This document shows positions 5,362 through 30,093 of a stretch of 32,000 bases of DNA, one piece after another. The notes under the pieces were generated by a model. The model searched no databases. It saw nothing but the letters and a program-made list of their open reading frames with translations, and was not told the origin of the DNA. Numbering within the stretch: position 1 is the first letter of the stretch; every line of letters begins with the position of its first letter. The stretch is taken from positions 3,690,001 to 3,722,000 of the forward strand of contig NC_017448.1 of assembly GCF_000146505.1 (NCBI RefSeq), given 5' to 3'. Source of the DNA: Fibrobacter succinogenes subsp. succinogenes S85 (GTDB lineage Bacteria; Fibrobacterota; Fibrobacteria; Fibrobacterales; Fibrobacteraceae). Both the position numbers and the translations under genes were made by a program.

Positions 5362-6645
5362 TTAAGCTTTCAGCTGTTCAACAATCGCGGCGACATCGCC
5401 CACGTGCATGGTGCCGTCACGGAGGTCCTTGTATTCGAACTGACCGGCAGCCGCCTTGTCACCATCGACATAAACGACGATGCTTGCGCCCTGGTAGTTG
5501 GCCTGTTCCAGCTGCTTGCCCATCTTCATGGTGGCGAGCGGGTGAGAAACAGAGTTGCCGTTTGCGCGGAACACCTGGGCCGTTTCGAAAATCTTCTTCA
5601 TGTCGTTCGTGAAGCTTGCGATGTAGAAGTCCACATGCTGCTTCGGGCTCGGCAGAAGTCCACGTTCGCGGAGGAGGTCGGCGAGCACGACGTCGCCCAT
5701 GCCAAAGCCAACGCCCGGGATGCGGTCGCCACCGAGCTTTTCGGTGAGGCTGTCATAACGTCCACCGCCTGCGATAGCGCGCATGGATTTACCCTTGTCA
5801 AAGACTTCGAACACGATGCCGGTGTAGTAGGCGAGGCCACGCACAATGGAAAGGTCGAGGTTCACGCATTCGCTAAAGCCTGCGGCAGCAAGCGTAGCAA
5901 AGAGGTCTTCAATTTCCTTAAGGGCGGCGGTTGCGTTTTCGCTCTTCACGGCGGCGCGCACTTCTTCGATAGACTTGCAGCTCATGAAATCGTCGAGCTG
6001 CTTGATCTGTGCTTCGGAAAGTCCAGCTTCGGTAAGTGCCTTGGCAAATGCTTCCGGGCCGATTTTCAGGCGACGGTCAAGAACCGGGTAAACGAGAGCC
6101 GGGTTCGGGGCGCCAATTTCTTCGAGGTAGGTGGCGAGGAGCTTGCGGCTCGAAACGCCAATGGCAAAGTCGGAGTCCTTGAGGCCGAATTTGCGGAGCA
6201 TTGTGGCGATGGAGGCGAGCAAGTCTGCTTCGGCGTAGATGCTTTCAGTGCCGATGATGTCCATGTTCAGCTGGAAAAATTCGCGGAGACGACCCTTCTG
6301 AGCCTTTTCGTAACGGAACAGGCGCGGCATGGAGAACCACTTGAACGGCTTCTTGAGTTCGCGGGCCTTCTGGATCACGAGGCGGGCGAGTGTCGGCGTC
6401 ATTTCGGGGCGGAGTGCAATTTCGCGGTCGCCCTTGTCCTTGAAGTTATAAAGCTGGCTTACGATTTCTTCGCCGGATTTTCCGGTGTAAAGTTCCAGAT
6501 GTTCAAACATCGGGCCTTCGTATTCTTCGTAGGCGAAGCTTTCGGCGACTTTGCGCCATGTGTCAAAAATATAGTTCTGGATGCGCTCGGCTTCCGGGTA
6601 AAAATCACGTGTGCCTTTAGGCAGTTGAGGAATTGCAATACTCAT
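5362..6645 (-). CDS. hisS: histidine--tRNA ligase (class II)
   Basis: 427 aa. N-terminus reads PKGTRDFYPEA, followed by ALRPEMTPTLARLV and FRYEKAQKGRLREFFQLNMDIIG (class II motif 2 region), then GGGRYD. These are typical HisRS signatures. Confidence 0.95.
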   Translation of the reverse strand: MSIAIPQLPKGTRDFYPEAERIQNYIFDTWRKVAESFAYEEYEGPMFEHLELYTGKSGEEIVSQLYNFKDKGDREIALRPEMTPTLARLVIQKARELKKPFKWFSMPRLFRYEKAQKGRLREFFQLNMDIIGTESIYAEADLLASIATMLRKFGLKDSDFAIGVSSRKLLATYLEEIGAPNPALVYPVLDRRLKIGPEAFAKALTEAGLSEAQIKQLDDFMSCKSIEEVRAAVKSENATAALKEIEDLFATLAAAGFSECVNLDLSIVRGLAYYTGIVFEVFDKGKSMRAIAGGGRYDSLTEKLGGDRIPGVGFGMGDVVLADLLRERGLLPSPKQHVDFYIASFTNDMKKIFETAQVFRANGNSVSHPLATMKMGKQLEQANYQGASIVVYVDGDKAAAGQFEYKDLRDGTMHVGDVAAIVEQLKA

Positions 6646-6666
6646 AGTGCGAGCAAAGATAGAAAA

Positions 6667-6694
6667 GTTACTAGTTAGTAGTTACTAGTTACTA
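6667..6694. repeat. four tandem heptamers GTTACTA GTTAGTA GTTACTA GTTACTA in the hisS/mdh divergent intergenic region
   Basis: Read directly from the sequence. On the minus strand it is (TAGTAAC)-type x4, ending about 21 nt upstream of the hisS ATG. Confidence 0.85.
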
Positions 6695-22732: not shown

Positions 22733-23575
22733 ATGAATTTCTCTCGTCTTTGGACTTTCGCTTCGCTCAAGTCCCAACCATTCGGCTCGGTCATGCCCAA
22801 CTTCGTTGGTCGCGACTCTCGCCTTAAATGGTTGTCGTCTCTCGTTTTTATTCTCTCGTCTCTCGTCTTTACTCTCTCGTCTGCTTACGCCGAGGCTCCC
22901 CGTGTTGTGCCGACAATCCTTGATTCTATTCCGCACGAACAGTCTCATTTTACGCAAGGCCTCTCGTTTGACGGCAAAGAAATGATTGAAACCACAGGGC
23001 TGTATGGAAAATCTGGACTGTACCGCCGTACGCTTGACGGAAAAATTCTGGATTCCGCCCGCATTGAGGAACGCTATTTTGGCGAAGGCTCCGTAGCGCT
23101 TGGCGACGAAATCTATTATCTCACCTGGAAATCGCATAAGGCCTTTATCTACTCGCGCAAACCGTTCAAAAAGAAGGGTGAATTCCGCATCCCGACCGAA
23201 GGCTGGGGCCTTACGCTCTGGCGTGACCAGCTTTTGATGAGCAACGGTTCCGATGAACTTTTGCAAATTGCACCGGGCGGCTTTGATGTGTCCGGAATTA
23301 TCAAGGTTCACGATGGCCGCTATTCCATAAAACTCTTGAACGAACTTGAAGTTGTCGGAAATATTTTGTACGCAAACATCTGGCAGACCGACCTGATTGC
23401 CGAAATTGAACTCCCGAGCGGCAAGGTGCTCCGCTACATTGACTTTTCGAAAAAAGCGGGGGAGATCCGCGAAAAATTCCCCGGTGTCGACGTCCTAAAC
23501 GGCATCGCCTACGACGGCAAAAACTTCTGGATTACCGGCAAGCTTTGGCCGCAAATCTACAAAGTCAAGTTTTAA
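22733..23575 (+). CDS. glutaminyl-peptide cyclotransferase (bacterial/plant beta-propeller type), secreted
   Basis: HFTQGLSFDGKEMIETTGLYGKSGLYRRTL, YFGEGSVALGDEIYYLTWKS, EGWGLT and LNELEVVGNILYANIW fit the glutamine cyclotransferase family. An alternative start at ATG 22793 gives a conventional signal peptide MPNFVGRDSRLKWLSSLVFILSSLVFTLSSAYA. Confidence 0.8.
   Translation: MNFSRLWTFASLKSQPFGSVMPNFVGRDSRLKWLSSLVFILSSLVFTLSSAYAEAPRVVPTILDSIPHEQSHFTQGLSFDGKEMIETTGLYGKSGLYRRTLDGKILDSARIEERYFGEGSVALGDEIYYLTWKSHKAFIYSRKPFKKKGEFRIPTEGWGLTLWRDQLLMSNGSDELLQIAPGGFDVSGIIKVHDGRYSIKLLNELEVVGNILYANIWQTDLIAEIELPSGKVLRYIDFSKKAGEIREKFPGVDVLNGIAYDGKNFWITGKLWPQIYKVKF
22742..22881 (+). repeat. dispersed TCTCGTC heptamers plus a CGCTTCGC hairpin motif inside the 5' end of the cyclase ORF
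   Basis: TCTCGTC occurs at 22742-48, 22854-60, 22861-67 and 22875-81, with a TCGTCTCTCGT variant at 22835-45. CGCTTCGC (22759-66) sits inside the hairpin GGACT...AGTCC. Confidence 0.8.
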
Positions 23576-26102: not shown

Positions 26103-27608
26103 ATGGCAATGCAAGATATGAATGACCAGGTGATGGCTCGCTTGGCTAAGCTCGACAAGTTCAAGGAAATGGGTGTGGATGCTTATCCGCACAAGTTTAA
26201 CAGGACCCATGATTCCAAGGTTTTGAAGGAAAACAAGGATGCCTTGATGGTGACCAAGGAACCGGTTGCATTTGCCGGCCGCGTGGTGCGTTTCAATCGC
26301 AAGGGTAAAATGTGCTTTATGCACCTCAAGGACCGCTATGGCCGCTTGCAGGTTGTGGTTGCCCGTGACGAAGTGGGCGAAGAAAACTACGAAATCGTGA
26401 AGATGACCGACCTCGGTGACTTCATCGGTGTGAACGGTACGATGTTCGAAACGCAGAGCGGTGAATACTCTGTGCGTGCCGAAAAGGTCACGATGCTTTC
26501 GAAGGCTGTGCGCCCGCTCCCGGTCGCCAAGGAAAAGGTCGACGAAAACGGCAACAAGGTCGTGTTCAACGAATTTGCCGACGTGGATACCCGCTACCGC
26601 CAGCGCTATATCGACATGGCTTTGAACGACGACGTGAAGGAAGTCTTCATCAAGCGTTCCAAGATCATGCAGGCTATCCGCGAATACCTCATCGAAAAGG
26701 GATTCATCGAAGTCGAAACCCCGACGCTCCAGCCGATTTACGGTGGTGCTAACGCTCGTCCGTTTACGACGCACCACAATGCTTGCGACATGACGCTCTA
26801 CTTGCGCGTGGCTCCGGAACTTTACCTCAAACGCTGCATCATTGGCGGTATGGAAAAGGTGTTCGAGTTCTGCAAGAACTTCCGCAACGAAGGTATGGAC
26901 CGTACGCATAGCCCGGAATTCACTGGCCTCGAATTCTACGAAGCCTACGCCGACTACAACGACATGATGGTACACTTCGAAAACATTTACGAACGCGCCT
27001 GCATTGCCGCTAACGGTACGACCAAGGTCAACTACCAGGGCAAGGAAATCGACTTCAAGGCTCCGTGGCCGCGCTACAGCATGATCGAAGCCATTGAAAA
27101 GTTCGGTGGCATCAAGGTCAACGATATGAGCGACGACGAAATCAAGGCCAAGATGGAAGAACTCGGCGGTCACCTTGATGGTGAATTTACTCGTGGTCGT
27201 GGCATCTTGGAACTCTTCGATCTCACGGTGGAAGGCAAGCTCATCCAGCCGACGATCATCAAGGACATGCCTACCGAAAGCACCCCGCTCTGCAAGAAGC
27301 ACCGCACGACTGCAGGCCTCATCGAACAGTTCGAACCGTATGCTAACGGCTGGGAACTCGGTAACGCTTACACCGAACTTAACGATCCGATCCGCCAGCG
27401 CGAACTCCTTGAAGACCAGGTGCGTCGTGGCCGTGGTGGTGAAGGTGAAACCCATCCGATGGACGAAAACTTCATGCACGCTGTGGAAAGCGGTCTTCCG
27501 CCGACGGGCGGCGTGGGCTTTGGCATCGACCGCATGGTCATGCTCCTCACCAACCAGCAGACCATCCGCGACGTCCAGCTCTTCCCATTGATGAAGCCTG
27601 AGGTTTAG
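26103..27608 (+). CDS. lysS: lysine--tRNA ligase (class II)
   Basis: 501 aa. An OB-fold N-domain is followed by the class II core: RYRQRYIDMALN, FIEVETPTLQPIYGGANARPF, LYLRVAPELYLKR, FRNEGMDRTHSPEFTGLEFY and GGVGFGIDRMVMLLT. Confidence 0.95.
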   Translation: MAMQDMNDQVMARLAKLDKFKEMGVDAYPHKFNRTHDSKVLKENKDALMVTKEPVAFAGRVVRFNRKGKMCFMHLKDRYGRLQVVVARDEVGEENYEIVKMTDLGDFIGVNGTMFETQSGEYSVRAEKVTMLSKAVRPLPVAKEKVDENGNKVVFNEFADVDTRYRQRYIDMALNDDVKEVFIKRSKIMQAIREYLIEKGFIEVETPTLQPIYGGANARPFTTHHNACDMTLYLRVAPELYLKRCIIGGMEKVFEFCKNFRNEGMDRTHSPEFTGLEFYEAYADYNDMMVHFENIYERACIAANGTTKVNYQGKEIDFKAPWPRYSMIEAIEKFGGIKVNDMSDDEIKAKMEELGGHLDGEFTRGRGILELFDLTVEGKLIQPTIIKDMPTESTPLCKKHRTTAGLIEQFEPYANGWELGNAYTELNDPIRQRELLEDQVRRGRGGEGETHPMDENFMHAVESGLPPTGGVGFGIDRMVMLLTNQQTIRDVQLFPLMKPEV

Positions 27609-27675
27609 ACGAGAGAACGTCGCTTCGCGGCTACAGACGAGAGACGAAAGAACGTAAAAGGAAAAGATCTAGAGA

Positions 27676-28029
27676 ATGTTTGCGTATAGAAAACTATTGG
27701 TTTATCAGAAAGCTCTGCAATGGTTGCTAGACGTTTATCGTTTGTGTAGAACTTTTCCTGATTACGAAAGATTTGCTCTAACAAGTCAAATTAGGCGAGC
27801 TGCTGTTTCTGTGACTTCAAACATCGCAGAGGGTATGAGTCGTTCTTCGGACCGTGAAGTTGTACATTTTCTTGAAATAAGCTATGGATCATTGATGGAG
27901 GTTCAAAGTCAATTAGAAGTAGCTCAGTTGTTAAACTACATTTCAAAGGATTCTTTGGATGACGTCGATCCGAAGACTGAGGAAATCGCAAAAATGCTTT
28001 CTGGTTTGAAAAAGTCTAAAATGCGATAA
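27676..28029 (+). CDS. four-helix-bundle protein (23S rRNA intervening-sequence protein / Avd-like family)
   Basis: 117 aa. YQKALQWLLDVYRLCRTFPDYERFALTSQIRRAAVSVTSNIAEGMSR...FLEISYGSLMEVQSQLEVA is the characteristic pattern of TIGR02436/PF05635-type proteins, as I recall it. Confidence 0.85.
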   Translation: MFAYRKLLVYQKALQWLLDVYRLCRTFPDYERFALTSQIRRAAVSVTSNIAEGMSRSSDREVVHFLEISYGSLMEVQSQLEVAQLLNYISKDSLDDVDPKTEEIAKMLSGLKKSKMR

Positions 28030-28031
28030 TC

Positions 28032-28059
28032 TCTCGTCTCTCGTCTCTCGTCTCTCGTC
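28032..28059 (+). repeat. (TCTCGTC)x4 perfect tandem heptamer array, ending 1 nt before the lolE-like ATG
   Basis: Read directly, with units at 28032-38, 28039-45, 28046-52 and 28053-59. Confidence 0.95.
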
Positions 28060-28060
28060 T

Positions 28061-29311
28061 ATGATTAGTAAGCTCGAACTTCTCATCGCTTGGCGTTACT
28101 TGGGGGCTCAACGTAAGAGTCTCTTTGTTTCGCTTATTGGTATTTTCAGTATGCTCGGCGTTTCCATTGGCGTGTTTGCGCTGGTGGTGGCGCTTGCGGC
28201 GGTCAACGGTTTCGAAGAAGAGGTCACGGCCCAGATGATTGGGAAGGACGCTCACTTTGAACTGATGGCGTACAATGGCAATCCGATTGGTCCGTACGAT
28301 AGCCTCACGCAGGAGGTGCAAAAGCGTGTGCCTGACGTAGTCGCTTCGTCGCCGTTTATCGTTTACAAGGTGGGCATCAGCTCCAAGAAGGTGAACGATG
28401 GCATTGTCATTTACGGCATTGACCCGGCGACAGCCAAGGGCGTGACGGATATCCATAAATACATCAAGTGGGGAGAATACTCGGTCGACAGTCTTGAAGA
28501 CATGGGTGGCAAACGCCGTCCGGGAATTATTCTCGGGACTGGGCTTGCGGCGCGCTTGCGCGTTGTCGTTGGTGACAAACTCGTGTTGCAGACATTCCAG
28601 AGTCCGGACGAGGCGATGAGTTCGGGTGGCCCGAAGATGATGATGTGCGTGGTGAGCGGCATCTTCGAGACGGGTACTTACGAATACGATGGAAACCTTG
28701 CGTATGTCGGCATTTCGGATTTGCAGAAGTTGCTCGGCATGGGGAACACCGTGACCGGCATCCAGTTCCGCATCAAGGATCACTGGAAAGCGGGCGAGGC
28801 GGTCGATAGCATGGCGACTTGGCTATCTTATCCGTATTACGGGATGGATTGGAAGTCCAAGAACATCACGCTCCTCAAGTGGATGAACTACGAAAAGTTC
28901 ATTGTGGCGGCGGTGATTTGTTTGATTATCTTGGTCGCTGCGTTCAACATCATCAGCTCGCTCATCATGGTTGTGATTGACAAGACAAAGGAAATTGGCA
29001 TCTTGCGTAGCATGGGCTTTAGCAAGGCGGGCGTGATGCGTGTGTTCATGCTGATGGGAAGTTTCATTGGCGTGGGCGGTACCGTTGTGGGTGGAACTGT
29101 TGGACTTGTGCTCTGCAAGTTGCAAGAGGCTTACCACTTCATTAAGCTGCCTGGCGATGTGTACGTGATTCCGTATTTCCCGATTTCGGTGCATGCGATT
29201 GACGTTATTTTGATTTTTGTGATTGGTATTGTTTTGTGCGTGTCCGCGACGCTTTTGCCGGCGTGGAAAGCAAGCCGCTTGGATCCTGTGGGGGCGATTA
29301 GACATGAATGA
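28061..29311 (+). CDS. LolC/LolE-family lipoprotein-releasing ABC transporter permease (FtsX/MacB-type)
   Basis: 416 aa. N-terminus reads LLIAWRYLGAQRKSLFVSLIGIFSMLGVSIGV, followed by a large periplasmic loop and a C-terminal FtsX-like domain (KTKEIGILRSMGFS...ATLLPAWKASRLDPVGAIR). Confidence 0.85.
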   Translation: MISKLELLIAWRYLGAQRKSLFVSLIGIFSMLGVSIGVFALVVALAAVNGFEEEVTAQMIGKDAHFELMAYNGNPIGPYDSLTQEVQKRVPDVVASSPFIVYKVGISSKKVNDGIVIYGIDPATAKGVTDIHKYIKWGEYSVDSLEDMGGKRRPGIILGTGLAARLRVVVGDKLVLQTFQSPDEAMSSGGPKMMMCVVSGIFETGTYEYDGNLAYVGISDLQKLLGMGNTVTGIQFRIKDHWKAGEAVDSMATWLSYPYYGMDWKSKNITLLKWMNYEKFIVAAVICLIILVAAFNIISSLIMVVIDKTKEIGILRSMGFSKAGVMRVFMLMGSFIGVGGTVVGGTVGLVLCKLQEAYHFIKLPGDVYVIPYFPISVHAIDVILIFVIGIVLCVSATLLPAWKASRLDPVGAIRHE

Positions 29312-29410
29312 TTTAGACGAAAGAACGCTTCGCCTTTGGCTTCGCTATAGACGAAAGAGTAAAGAGTTTGATATAATTCTTTCGTCTTTCGTCTTTCGTC
29401 TTTCGTCTAT
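29312..29410 (+). repeat. gene-less miniature inverted-repeat element of the same family: two GACGAAAG left arms + (TTTCGTC)x4 right arm
   Basis: TAGACGAAAGA (29314-24) and ATAGACGAAAGA (29347-58) are exact reverse complements of TCTTTCGTCTA(T) (29399-29410). The heptamer units lie at 29380-86, 29387-93, 29394-400 and 29401-07. CGCTTCGC lies at 29326-33. Confidence 0.85.
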
Positions 29411-29421
29411 TGGAGTTTTTT

Positions 29422-30093
29422 ATGTCTAGCTTACTACAAACAGAAAATCTTCGTCGTGTCTTCTCCGAGACGGGTGAATCTCTTGAAATCCTCAAGGGCG
29501 TGAATTTTTCGATGGAAGCGGGCGAGCTTGTGGCGCTCACGGGTTCATCGGGTTCTGGCAAATCGACGTTCTTGAATTTGGTCGGAATGCTTGATACACC
29601 AACTTCGGGCGAGATTTTGTTCAAGGGCAAGCCGCTTAGTAAATTCAGTAGCGAAGAACGCGATATGTACCATCGGAAGCATGTTGGGTTCGTTTTCCAG
29701 TTCCATCACTTGCTCACGGAATTTACGGCGCTCGAAAATGTTTGCGTGCCGGGCCGCATTCTCGGGACTCCCGAAAAGGAATGCCGCGAACGTGCTGAAA
29801 TGCTTTTGGAAACGGTGGGCCTCAAGGAACGCCTCAAGCACTTGCCGCGAGAACTTTCGGGCGGTGAACGCCAGCGAATTGCAATCGCGCGTGCGCTCAT
29901 GAACAACCCGTCCCTCGTGTTTGCGGATGAACCGAGCGGTAACCTGGATGAAGCGAATTCGGCGAAATTGAACGAGCTCTTTGGCGAACTCAATGAAAAG
30001 TTCCATCAGGCGTTCTTGATTGTGACGCACGATGAAAAGCTTGCTAGTTTTGCAAAACGCCGAGTCGTGATGCATAATGGAGTGATTCAATAG
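29422..30093 (+). CDS. LolD-like ABC transporter ATP-binding protein
   Basis: Walker A GSSGSGKST, signature LSGGERQRIAIARAL and Walker B LVFADEPSGNLD. The start is taken at ATG 29422, with GGAG 6 nt upstream, rather than the track TTG 29410. Confidence 0.88.
   Translation: MSSLLQTENLRRVFSETGESLEILKGVNFSMEAGELVALTGSSGSGKSTFLNLVGMLDTPTSGEILFKGKPLSKFSSEERDMYHRKHVGFVFQFHHLLTEFTALENVCVPGRILGTPEKECRERAEMLLETVGLKERLKHLPRELSGGERQRIAIARALMNNPSLVFADEPSGNLDEANSAKLNELFGELNEKFHQAFLIVTHDEKLASFAKRRVVMHNGVIQ

Follow-up and report, generated by a model that had tools for sequence, protein, structure and literature searches.

A gene-less, heptamer-armed hairpin between lolE and lolD of Fibrobacter succinogenes S85 as a probable miniature of a PF05635-bearing foldback cassette

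Intervening sequences (IVSs) are viewed as oddities of rRNA genes, and heptamers as unexplained simple repeats. The short tandemly repeated repetitive (STRR) sequences of cyanobacteria are said, in work credited to Mazel in 1990, to be heptamers as well. The 23S IVS of Coxiella burnetii is a stem-loop with an S23p (PF05635-type) open reading frame (ORF), tandem GACAGAT repeats and a 28-bp terminal stem, in which RNase III cleaves the first repeat, and among Coxiella strains the ORF decays inside a retained IVS stem (PMC4990558). The GGGAATC repeats of Xanthomonas include 70-75 convergent pairs that are able to form stem-loops of unknown function (PMC4692102), and TAACTGA heptamers are found in Beggiatoaceae, Cyanobacteria and Bacteroidetes, with a regulatory role proposed for those of Beggiatoaceae (PMC4679880). 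Here we analyze a stretch of DNA from Fibrobacter succinogenes subsp. succinogenes S85, a rumen bacterium that is in culture and has been characterised genetically, in which both forms lie next to each other in a single operon. The window is the whole stretch of 32,000 nt (NC_017448.1, positions 3,690,001 to 3,722,000 of the forward strand), matched to S85 in CP001792 near 3.27 Mb, and our subject is the 99-nt element that lies between lolE and lolD (29312-29410, called element 2). A related element lies 1.3 kb upstream between lysS and lolE (27604-28060, called element 1).

Our results make it reasonably probable that element 2 is an ORF-less miniature of a family of foldback cassettes whose full form bears a PF05635 gene, that the hairpin in its transcript is cut by RNase III, and that it is carried as a passenger of the operon. 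The arms of this family are inverted heptamer arrays, GACGARA on the left and TYTCGTC on the right, with a nominal length of four units (28 nt). A search of the literature on Fibrobacter turned up no account of this repeat, and the literature on PF05635, TIGR02436 and "S23 ribosomal protein" gave only annotation and mentions of diversity-generating retroelements (DGRs), with no heptamer link beyond Coxiella. PMC4692102 was also searched for a link to intervening-sequence (S23p/PF05635) genes, and none was found there. The link between PF05635 genes and heptamer arms appears to be new within the reachable literature, and an earlier description elsewhere is possible.

Element 2 and its ORF-bearing neighbour

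The gap between lolE and lolD contains two GACGAAAGA arms and four TTTCGTC units, and its left end, TTTAGACGAAAGAACG, starts at 29312 immediately 3' of the lolE TGA. An earlier note, made from the letters of the window, had described the arms, the fourfold array and the position after the lolE stop in the same way, and we confirm this description. The features of the two elements, in window coordinates, are:

29309-29311, + strand: stop codon TGA of lolE (lolC/E-type permease), 2 nt upstream of the TAGACGA of the element
29314-29324, + strand: outer left arm TAGACGAAAGA, which pairs with 29399-29409 (11/11 complementary), also in the predicted folds
29325-29346, + strand: middle segment within the left arm, delimited by sequence, folds and comparison with relatives
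29347-29365, + strand: inner left arm ATAGACGAAAGAGTAAAGA with a degenerate second unit, which pairs with the first array units
29366-29377, + strand: loop GTTTGATATAAT of 12 nt, in the same slot as the PF05635 ORF of element 1
29378-29409, + strand: right arm TC(TTTCGTC)x4TA, a four-unit heptamer array with the units themselves at 29380-29407
29412-29424, + strand: TTGGAG with a GGAG Shine-Dalgarno-like motif, followed by the lolD ATG (29422), just outside the hairpin
27604-27654, + strand: left module of element 1, consisting of TTTAGACGAGAGAACG (its TAG is the lysS stop), a small hairpin GTCGC-TTC-GCGGC and CTACAGACGAGAGACGAAAGA
27676-28029, + strand: ORF of 117 aa encoding a PF05635 23S_rRNA_IVP / TIGR02436 four-helix-bundle protein (E 5e-37 and 8e-37)
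28030-28061, + strand: right arm of element 1, TC(TCTCGTC)x4TA, with a terminal TA that runs into the lolE ATG (28061)

The inner left arm of element 2 starts with ATAGACGAAAGAG (29347-29359), and over its 19 nt (29347-29365) it is 89% complementary to 29392-29410. Tandem Repeats Finder reports the array at 29378-29408 with a period of 7, 4.4 copies and 100% match. Both motifs are more frequent in the window than in shuffled sequence, with 9 matches to the two-unit heptamer pattern against 0.47 expected and 18 matches to GACGARAG against 2.3 expected. The RNA of 29312-29410 is predicted to fold into a Y shape at -39 kcal/mol (z = -6.5, equalled by 0 of 200 shuffles), in which an 11-bp outer helix and an inner helix of approximately 16 bp would meet in a three-way junction. 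The middle segment contains a direct repeat of GCTTCGC (29327-29333 and 29339-29345) that forms a weak 3-bp hairpin only. Other copies of the family have a GC hairpin of 5-6 bp in this slot, and the ortholog on contig L122 is 12 nt shorter there.

Elements 1 and 2 have the same modules in the same order, from the outer arm through a short middle segment and the inner arm to the loop or ORF, the four-unit array and TA. This agrees with the earlier note, in which element 2 was read as a gene-less version of its ORF-bearing neighbour. The same note gave the lysS-side arms as GACGAGA/TCTCGTC, which holds for the architecture but not for a full G/C match, as the inner arm GACGAGAGACGAAAGA has one A·C mismatch opposite TCTCTCGTCTCTCGTC (94% complementary). 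Its label "autonomous-like" for the ORF-bearing form has to be given up, as the ORF encodes a PF05635 relative of Avd and not a known transposase. The protein is related to Avd of DGRs and to the structures PDB 2GSC and 2RLD; no transposase domain was found in the ORF product, and PADLOC gave no defence-system match for it. Because the ORF is of the PF05635 type and the heptamer arms are as in the Coxiella IVS, element 1 is an IVS-type cassette in an operon. Element 2 is apparently the ORF-less form of this cassette.

Other classes of elements were also considered for element 2. No Rfam 15 covariance model reached its gathering score in the window and nothing relevant was found at E <= 10 in 27500-29500, the tRNA scan found none, and the scan for intrinsic terminators gave no terminator-like site at 29312-29410, where a T6 run begins 7 nt past the stem. 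A sigma-70-like TAGACG-18-TGaTATAAT in the inner arm and loop (29348-29377, directed towards lolD), of which the loop contains the extended -10-like part, was rejected as it is within shuffle expectation and absent from the L122 ortholog. The similarity between GATATAATTC and GCGATAATC was too weak for the loop to be taken as a remnant of the cassette leader and trailer. An integron attC site was dropped for lack of an integrase or R/L boxes, CRISPR for lack of spacers, and a repetitive extragenic palindrome (REP) for lack of the REP palindrome shape.

Insertion history and distribution in Fibrobacter

Orthologous loci were gathered via LolE homologs. An 8-nt overlap of lolE and lolD, with the sequence cATGAGTAG or cATGAGTAA, is shared by Fibrobacter sp. 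UWP2, UWEL, the metagenome-assembled genome JAZQQS01, several metagenome strains of the F. succinogenes clade and the outgroup Hallerella. In F. intestinalis the two genes are 35 nt apart, and no heptamer element lies between them. The S85 junction reads cATGAaTGA, the element, and then TTGGAGTTTTTTATGtcTAGc, with the frames of lolE and lolD both intact. Since the genes overlap in relatives and in Hallerella, and both frames are intact in S85, element 2 is a derived insertion. Judged from the aligned junctions, it is a recent, lineage-specific insertion into a lolE/lolD junction that ancestrally overlapped by 8 nt, and the insertion part of the mobile-element view in the earlier note is thereby upheld. 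The GGAG-ATG of lolD has no counterpart in relatives whose lolD starts inside lolE. The ortholog on contig L122 (LolE 96% identical) has, in addition to the deletion in its middle segment, a single heptamer unit where S85 has four; therefore, array length changes quickly.

The boundaries of the insertion are unclean. When filled and empty lolE-lolD sites are compared, the left-hand ATGAATGA and the right-hand ATGTCTAG might both have diverged from an ancestral ATGAGTAG, and the TA at both ends of element 2 is inseparable from the arms when a target-site duplication is sought. The lysS-lolE junction is empty in UWP2, Hallerella and F. intestinalis, and many strains of the F. succinogenes clade have an orthologous PF05635 cassette there with 4 or 6 units. 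In UWEL (L124 2385-2500), this junction holds a gene-less hairpin of another heptamer, (ATGAATT)x2 ... (AATTCAT)x2, followed by degenerate TCTCGT-like units, so that the site of the S85 cassette is home to a second ORF-less foldback. L122 has another IVP-like C-terminus at this junction, with (TACTTCC)x4 behind it. In contigs of some close relatives lolE is followed by genes other than lolD, namely a PF04754 transposase gene in L210 (3120-3300) and L213 (2776-2960) and a Fib_succ_major gene in L122 (1363-1600). The junction between lolE and lolD has the look of a hot spot for rearrangement; alternatively, the metagenome contigs in question may be chimeric at the repeat.

The presence/absence polymorphism among close relatives, and the different elements held by the lolE-lolD and lysS-lolE junctions in different strains, would also fit a miniature inverted-repeat transposable element (MITE) that acts at the DNA level. 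In this view, TAGACGARAGA...TCTYTCGTCTA would act as terminal inverted repeats to which either the PF05635 protein or a transposase or recombinase from another locus binds, and any RNA hairpin would be a by-product without a role. Element 2 is short (99 nt), non-coding, multi-copy and has inverted ends (TAGACGAAAGA / TCTTTCGTCTA), and TA is found at both ends in most copies. However, no transposase accompanies the elements, PF05635 is without known catalytic activity, and there is no clear target-site duplication at lolE-lolD. We consider the MITE explanation rather unlikely.

The distribution of the element was followed by scanning species-representative genomes for at least three TYTCGTC units, which gave at least 120 loci. 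About half of the loci listed are from Fibrobacter and many from Alistipes/Rikenellaceae, with scattered others. Among the matches listed, the unit number is exactly four in 47 of 59 Fibrobacter arrays and three in the other 12, and TA follows the array in 31 of the 59. Complete elements were found at at least 15 loci in other Fibrobacter genomes, which supports the earlier view that the element belongs to a multi-copy family. They consist of TAGACGARAGAACG, a short middle segment, CTACAGACGARAGACGAAAGA, a spacer of 6-90 nt, the array and usually TA, and all of them are predicted to fold into the same three-way junction (Y shape). A few left modules without an array were also seen among the Fibrobacter loci. 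Searches with tblastn and phmmer for PF05635 beside TYTCGTC arrays scored only in the window, its orthologs and L078 among the loci listed, so most TYTCGTC arrays are ORF-less.

Genes around the arrays, which themselves are without stop codons in all frames, were assigned by frame-by-frame inspection. For 13 of 20 left modules, the stop codon of a co-oriented ORF (80 codons or longer) lies between -25 and +12 nt of the module, compared with 5% of random positions. The offsets are mostly -7 to 0, and the TAG of the element itself is sometimes used as the stop. The proposal in the earlier note that insertions abut stop codons is therefore supported, by a comparison in which targeting and survivorship are not distinguishable. 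Such a strong bias to co-oriented sites directly after stop codons also speaks against the MITE explanation.

Arrays that lack an inverted partner, which the earlier note had set against its own hairpin view, were found in part; many Fibrobacter arrays are solo, but the complete copies keep their left arm. Solo arrays (L005, L013, L024, L042, L046, L048, L055, L059, L063, L066, L089, L091, L101) are typically followed by TA, approximately 4-7 nt and a TAnnTTTG-like motif (TATATTTG, TATCTTTA, TAAATTTG), with an ATG 5-40 nt later. It looks as if the solo array is placed directly upstream of a Bacteroidota-type -7 promoter element. These arrangements bring in a host cis-regulatory leader as a further explanation, in which the array would bind a protein or the ribosome and set the transcription or translation of the downstream gene, while the left arm modulates access. 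It would account for solo arrays being common and often followed by the TAnnTTTG-like motif and ATG, for arrays ending 1-25 nt before start codons in the window and at many loci, and for the predominance of four units in the Fibrobacter arrays listed (47/59). The TAACTGA repeats of Beggiatoaceae, for which such a role has been proposed (PMC4679880), are a precedent. Nevertheless, close relatives have lolD without any array and with overlapping genes, L122 retains the element with one unit only, and array length varies between strains at one site (4 vs 6 units; 1.5 vs 3.5 units). The downstream genes share no common function, and the inverted array pairs around PF05635 genes that are described below are not predicted by a leader. 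We find this explanation quite improbable.

Other repeats were observed near the heptamer arrays and elsewhere in the window. A dispersed hairpin repeat of the type GGATCCTTCG...GCTCAGGATGAC is found directly upstream of Fibrobacter heptamer arrays (L033, L037, L041, L088, L095, L104, L106) and also in Gemmatimonadota and Chryseobacterium contigs. A second heptamer family in the window, (AGTTACT)x4 at 6666-6694, lies approximately 20 nt upstream of the minus-strand gene 5362-6645, and its unit recurs in L055, L025 and L080. Further heptamer families in Fibrobacter are GTGGTTA/TAACCAC and GGAAGTA/TACTTCC. One more sequence of the TCTCGTC type is located in a coding region:

22835-22882 (region 22733-22900), + strand: degenerate TCTCGTC-type array with a period of 21, within the part of a glutaminyl cyclase gene (PF05096) that encodes the signal peptide, related to element 2 in sequence but not part of it

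Read from the second ATG (22793) of the glutaminyl cyclase gene, this array encodes a textbook signal peptide, MPNFVGRDSRLKWLSSLVFILSSLVFTLSSAYA/EA. The TCTCGTC unit encodes a permutation of S-R-L-S-S-L-V in any frame, and the arrays in L014, L025 and L107 likewise run into signal-peptide-like sequence. S85 has a single TCTCGTC unit at 22741-22748, where the orthologs L080 and L110 have a 3-unit array.

PF05635 cassettes beyond Fibrobacter and the pairing of arms

The closest homologs of the S85 protein outside Fibrobacter are found in Rikenellaceae (69% identity, P0176), where the PF05635 gene lies in the rnf operon between (GACGAGA)x4 and 1.5-3.5 TCTCGTC units. Since Rikenellaceae and Fibrobacter share GACGAGA/TCTCGTC, two phyla with a common habitat have the gene together with its cognate heptamer arms. 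In the Rikenellaceae loci L214 (1340-1500, 1860-1960) and L216, the left (GACGAGA)x4 makes up the last codons of the upstream rseC-like gene (...QTRDERRETRD*), and the right arms of these two strains differ by exactly two units. Viral contigs were considered as a vector between phyla and rejected, as the 10 matches (L220-L229) represent one unrelated variable microsatellite locus without PF05635. This viral or prophage locus has 4-10 TYTCGTC units and no inverted partner, in contrast to the four-unit arrays of Fibrobacter.

In metagenome contigs, scanning with a profile gave 80 diverse PF05635 loci (40-55% identity), of which 68 had enough flanking sequence. Period-7 arrays were found upstream (<=200 nt) at 36, downstream (<=120 nt) at 31 and on both sides at 20 of these 68 loci. 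The paired arrays are reverse complements of each other with locus-specific heptamers, e.g., TGTGGAA/TTCCACA, GAGAGTC/GACTCTC, TAGTAGC/GCTACTA, GTGGTTA/TAACCAC and CAGGGGT/ACCCCTG. Beside PF05635 genes, the density of period-7 arrays is 3.84/kb compared with 0.23/kb elsewhere on the same contigs, a 17-fold difference. Periods 5, 6 and 9 show little or no enrichment, and period 8 is enriched (0.42/kb vs 0.03/kb) at approximately one-ninth of the period-7 density. An inverted-repeat score of at least 14 was reached at 43 of the 68 loci and at none of 68 shuffled ones. The design of a PF05635 gene with inverted heptamer arms is thus general across many environments.

These inverted partners contradict a further explanation of the array in element 2, an ordinary heptanucleotide microsatellite made by polymerase slippage that is by chance a neighbour of partly complementary sequence. 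Among long simple repeats in bacteria, heptamers are indeed the most frequent (Mrazek 2007, as cited by a later paper), copy number varies between strains, and the prophage contigs contain a true variable TYTCGTC microsatellite with 4-10 units. However, slippage would not be expected to give a multi-module architecture conserved in at least 15 copies, a unit number with a mode of four instead of a decaying length distribution, or a fold with z = -6.5, and we give this explanation hardly any credence.

The earlier note had claimed that the mirrored G-to-A difference between elements 1 and 2 is compensatory covariation, and our data did not confirm this. Fifteen Fibrobacter elements give 41 informative arm pairs at the variable position, namely 20 A·C, 11 G-C, 8 A-U and 2 G·U, and the states of the left and right arms are independent (Fisher p = 0.46). 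Whole elements with all-A left arms and all-C arrays exist (L014 twice, L084 and L096). Four-unit arrays are mostly uniform, as CCCC was found 22 times (9.2 expected), TTTT 8 times (0.6 expected) and mixed arrays 17 times (37 expected), and A is the commoner left-arm state (68%). Because the arrays are homogenised and A is the commoner left-arm state, a copy with all A and all T does not require selection for pairing. The G/A difference between elements 1 and 2 can be put down to homogenisation of the arrays and to drift at a position where change is tolerated, rather than to compensatory selection.

Compensatory change is seen at another place in the family. In one subtype, the nested GC hairpin of the left arm is 100% paired in 9 sequences, both partners have changed at 3 of 4 pairs, and 0 of 500 shuffles were as good. 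These 9 sequences were chosen by hand, and element 2 is of the other subtype, the one with the direct GCTTCGC repeat; for the subtype with the hairpin, the compensatory change appears genuine. Since whole heptamers differ between cassettes and the arms still remain reverse complements, and since the nested hairpin behaves likewise, arm complementarity is maintained. Selection or some mechanism does keep the arms complementary, with pairing in RNA, pairing in single-stranded DNA (ssDNA) and recognition of both ends by a protein as alike possible causes. The idea behind the earlier note, that the pairing of the arms is kept, is hence supported by the heptamers of different cassettes and by the nested hairpin, but not by the G-to-A evidence.

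Arm complementarity across different heptamers equally fits a MITE with one protein that binds both ends, and such a protein would also be consistent with the tolerated A·C mismatches. In the diverse PF05635 cassettes, the arm mismatches on the sense strand lean the opposite way to those of Fibrobacter, with 35 of the G·U type and 20 of the A·C type. Neighbouring genes of PF05635 cassettes are co-oriented at 47 of 58 upstream and 41 of 54 downstream positions, which is only modestly above what is usual for bacteria. The co-orientation of ORF-bearing cassettes with upstream genes is easier explained at the transcript level than by a MITE, and rRNA IVSs of like design are demonstrably processed as RNA.

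A wider proposal can be made, which we hold only tentatively and would not yet rely on. PF05635 genes and heptamer arms may form one cross-phylum superfamily of mobile foldback cassettes, with the 23S IVSs as its best-known sites, and the short heptamer arrays and hairpins dispersed in many bacterial genomes (cyanobacterial STRR, Xanthomonas GGGAATC, Beggiatoaceae TAACTGA, and TYTCGTC in Fibrobacter and Alistipes) may be its ORF-less derivatives and footprints. If this is true, the excess of 7-nt repeats in bacteria would be explained, and the role of the Avd-like protein would be tied to its own heptamer arms, e.g., by binding, protection or mobilisation.

Proposed fate of the transcript and comparison with known systems

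In our preferred reading, where element 2 is an ORF-less foldback cassette, the cassette would be a promoterless, selfish or near-neutral passenger of operons. In the lysS-lolE-lolD transcript, each element is predicted to fold into a long stem, which RNase III might cut as it does in rRNA IVSs. By the same analogy, cleavage at element 2 could separate the lolE and lolD messages, and lolD, then translationally uncoupled, would start at the GGAG-ATG that is now 3' of the hairpin. At this locus, element 2 is probably a near-neutral insertion.

Several observations weigh against this reading. The sense-strand mismatches in Fibrobacter are mostly A·C (20) and rarely G·U (2), which is the opposite of what selection for a sense-RNA helix predicts; on the antisense strand, the A·C mismatches would be G·U. 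Copies with three A·C mismatches fold weakly (z ~ -2.5), and a good many Fibrobacter arrays are solo, in that the 110 nt around them contain no inverted partner, such that the array itself may have a separate role. Sampling of the Fibrobacter copies went through the right array, which differs from a whole-genome census. The comparison of filled and empty lolE-lolD sites gave neither a clean target-site duplication nor a clean boundary of the empty site, and the intact lolD start needs a duplication of the overlap region beyond simple insertion, for which the candidate copies are diverged. Cleavage by RNase III is proposed by analogy with rRNA IVSs, and to our knowledge PF05635 proteins are not mobility proteins.

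The practical consequence at lolE-lolD itself is modest, and the value of the locus is that it exposes the family. The operon-embedded kind of element has previously been unrecognised and can uncouple translationally coupled essential genes (lolE/lolD), and such elements can be a source of stop codons, of start contexts and even of sequence that codes for signal peptides. The link between heptamer cassettes and IVSs may help to explain the abundance of 7-base repeats in bacteria. If the link holds, two puzzles, the 7-nt repeat excess and the function of PF05635 outside DGRs, become one testable system.

Compared with known systems, the window arrays resemble bacterial heptanucleotide repeats in their period of 7, their short arrays of 2-6 units, their intergenic position often directly upstream of start codons, and a scattered phylogenetic distribution that suggests horizontal spread. 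Unlike the GGGAATC repeats (PMC4692102) and the TAACTGA repeats (PMC4679880, in the part consulted), which have been treated as isolated simple repeats with no known function, the arrays here are the arms of a defined cassette. They also differ from slippage-type simple repeats in that four units dominate (47/59 listed) and a conserved left module goes with the complete copies, although the copy number varies (1 vs 4, 4 vs 6).

The resemblance to MITEs and foldback elements lies in short non-coding copies beside a longer ORF-bearing relative, inverted ends, dispersal and presence/absence polymorphism. Eukaryotic foldback elements have arms of tandem subrepeats, as do the Fibrobacter elements. 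Unlike a MITE, the ORF-bearing partner here is without a recognisable transposase, and the insertions prefer co-oriented sites exactly between genes. Like REPs, bacterial interspersed mosaic elements (BIMEs) and REP doublets forming hairpins (REPINs) of proteobacteria, the elements are short extragenic repeats between operon genes, and REPs can affect mRNA stability. REPs are, however, imperfect palindromes of approximately 35 nt and not heptamer arrays. They are mobilised by REP-associated tyrosine transposases (RAYTs, IS200/IS605-like), none of which is associated with the present elements in a window that was not searched for one. The small dispersed repeats (SDRs) of Nostoc, which Elhai and co-workers reportedly described in 2008, are very small hairpin elements nested in other repeats. 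By description only, the GC hairpin in the left arm of Fibrobacter copies is similar to these, with variable sequence, conserved pairing and constant flanks.

The closest comparison is with the 23S IVSs of Coxiella burnetii and Leptospira. Element 2 differs from these in its 12-nt loop without an ORF, and both elements differ in their position between protein-coding genes instead of inside a 23S rRNA gene (helix 9, 25 or 45), with no rRNA found in the window, and in a left arm that is interrupted by a nested segment. RNase III excision has been shown for IVSs and would apply to the window elements by analogy, with which the predicted duplex length of element 2 (11 + 16 bp) is compatible. Like the IVSs, element 1 has a PF05635 ORF between heptamer inverted repeats, where four heptamers make 28 nt, and elements 1 and 2 both have terminal inverted repeats built of heptamers that would form a long stem, which is approximately 28 bp in Coxiella.

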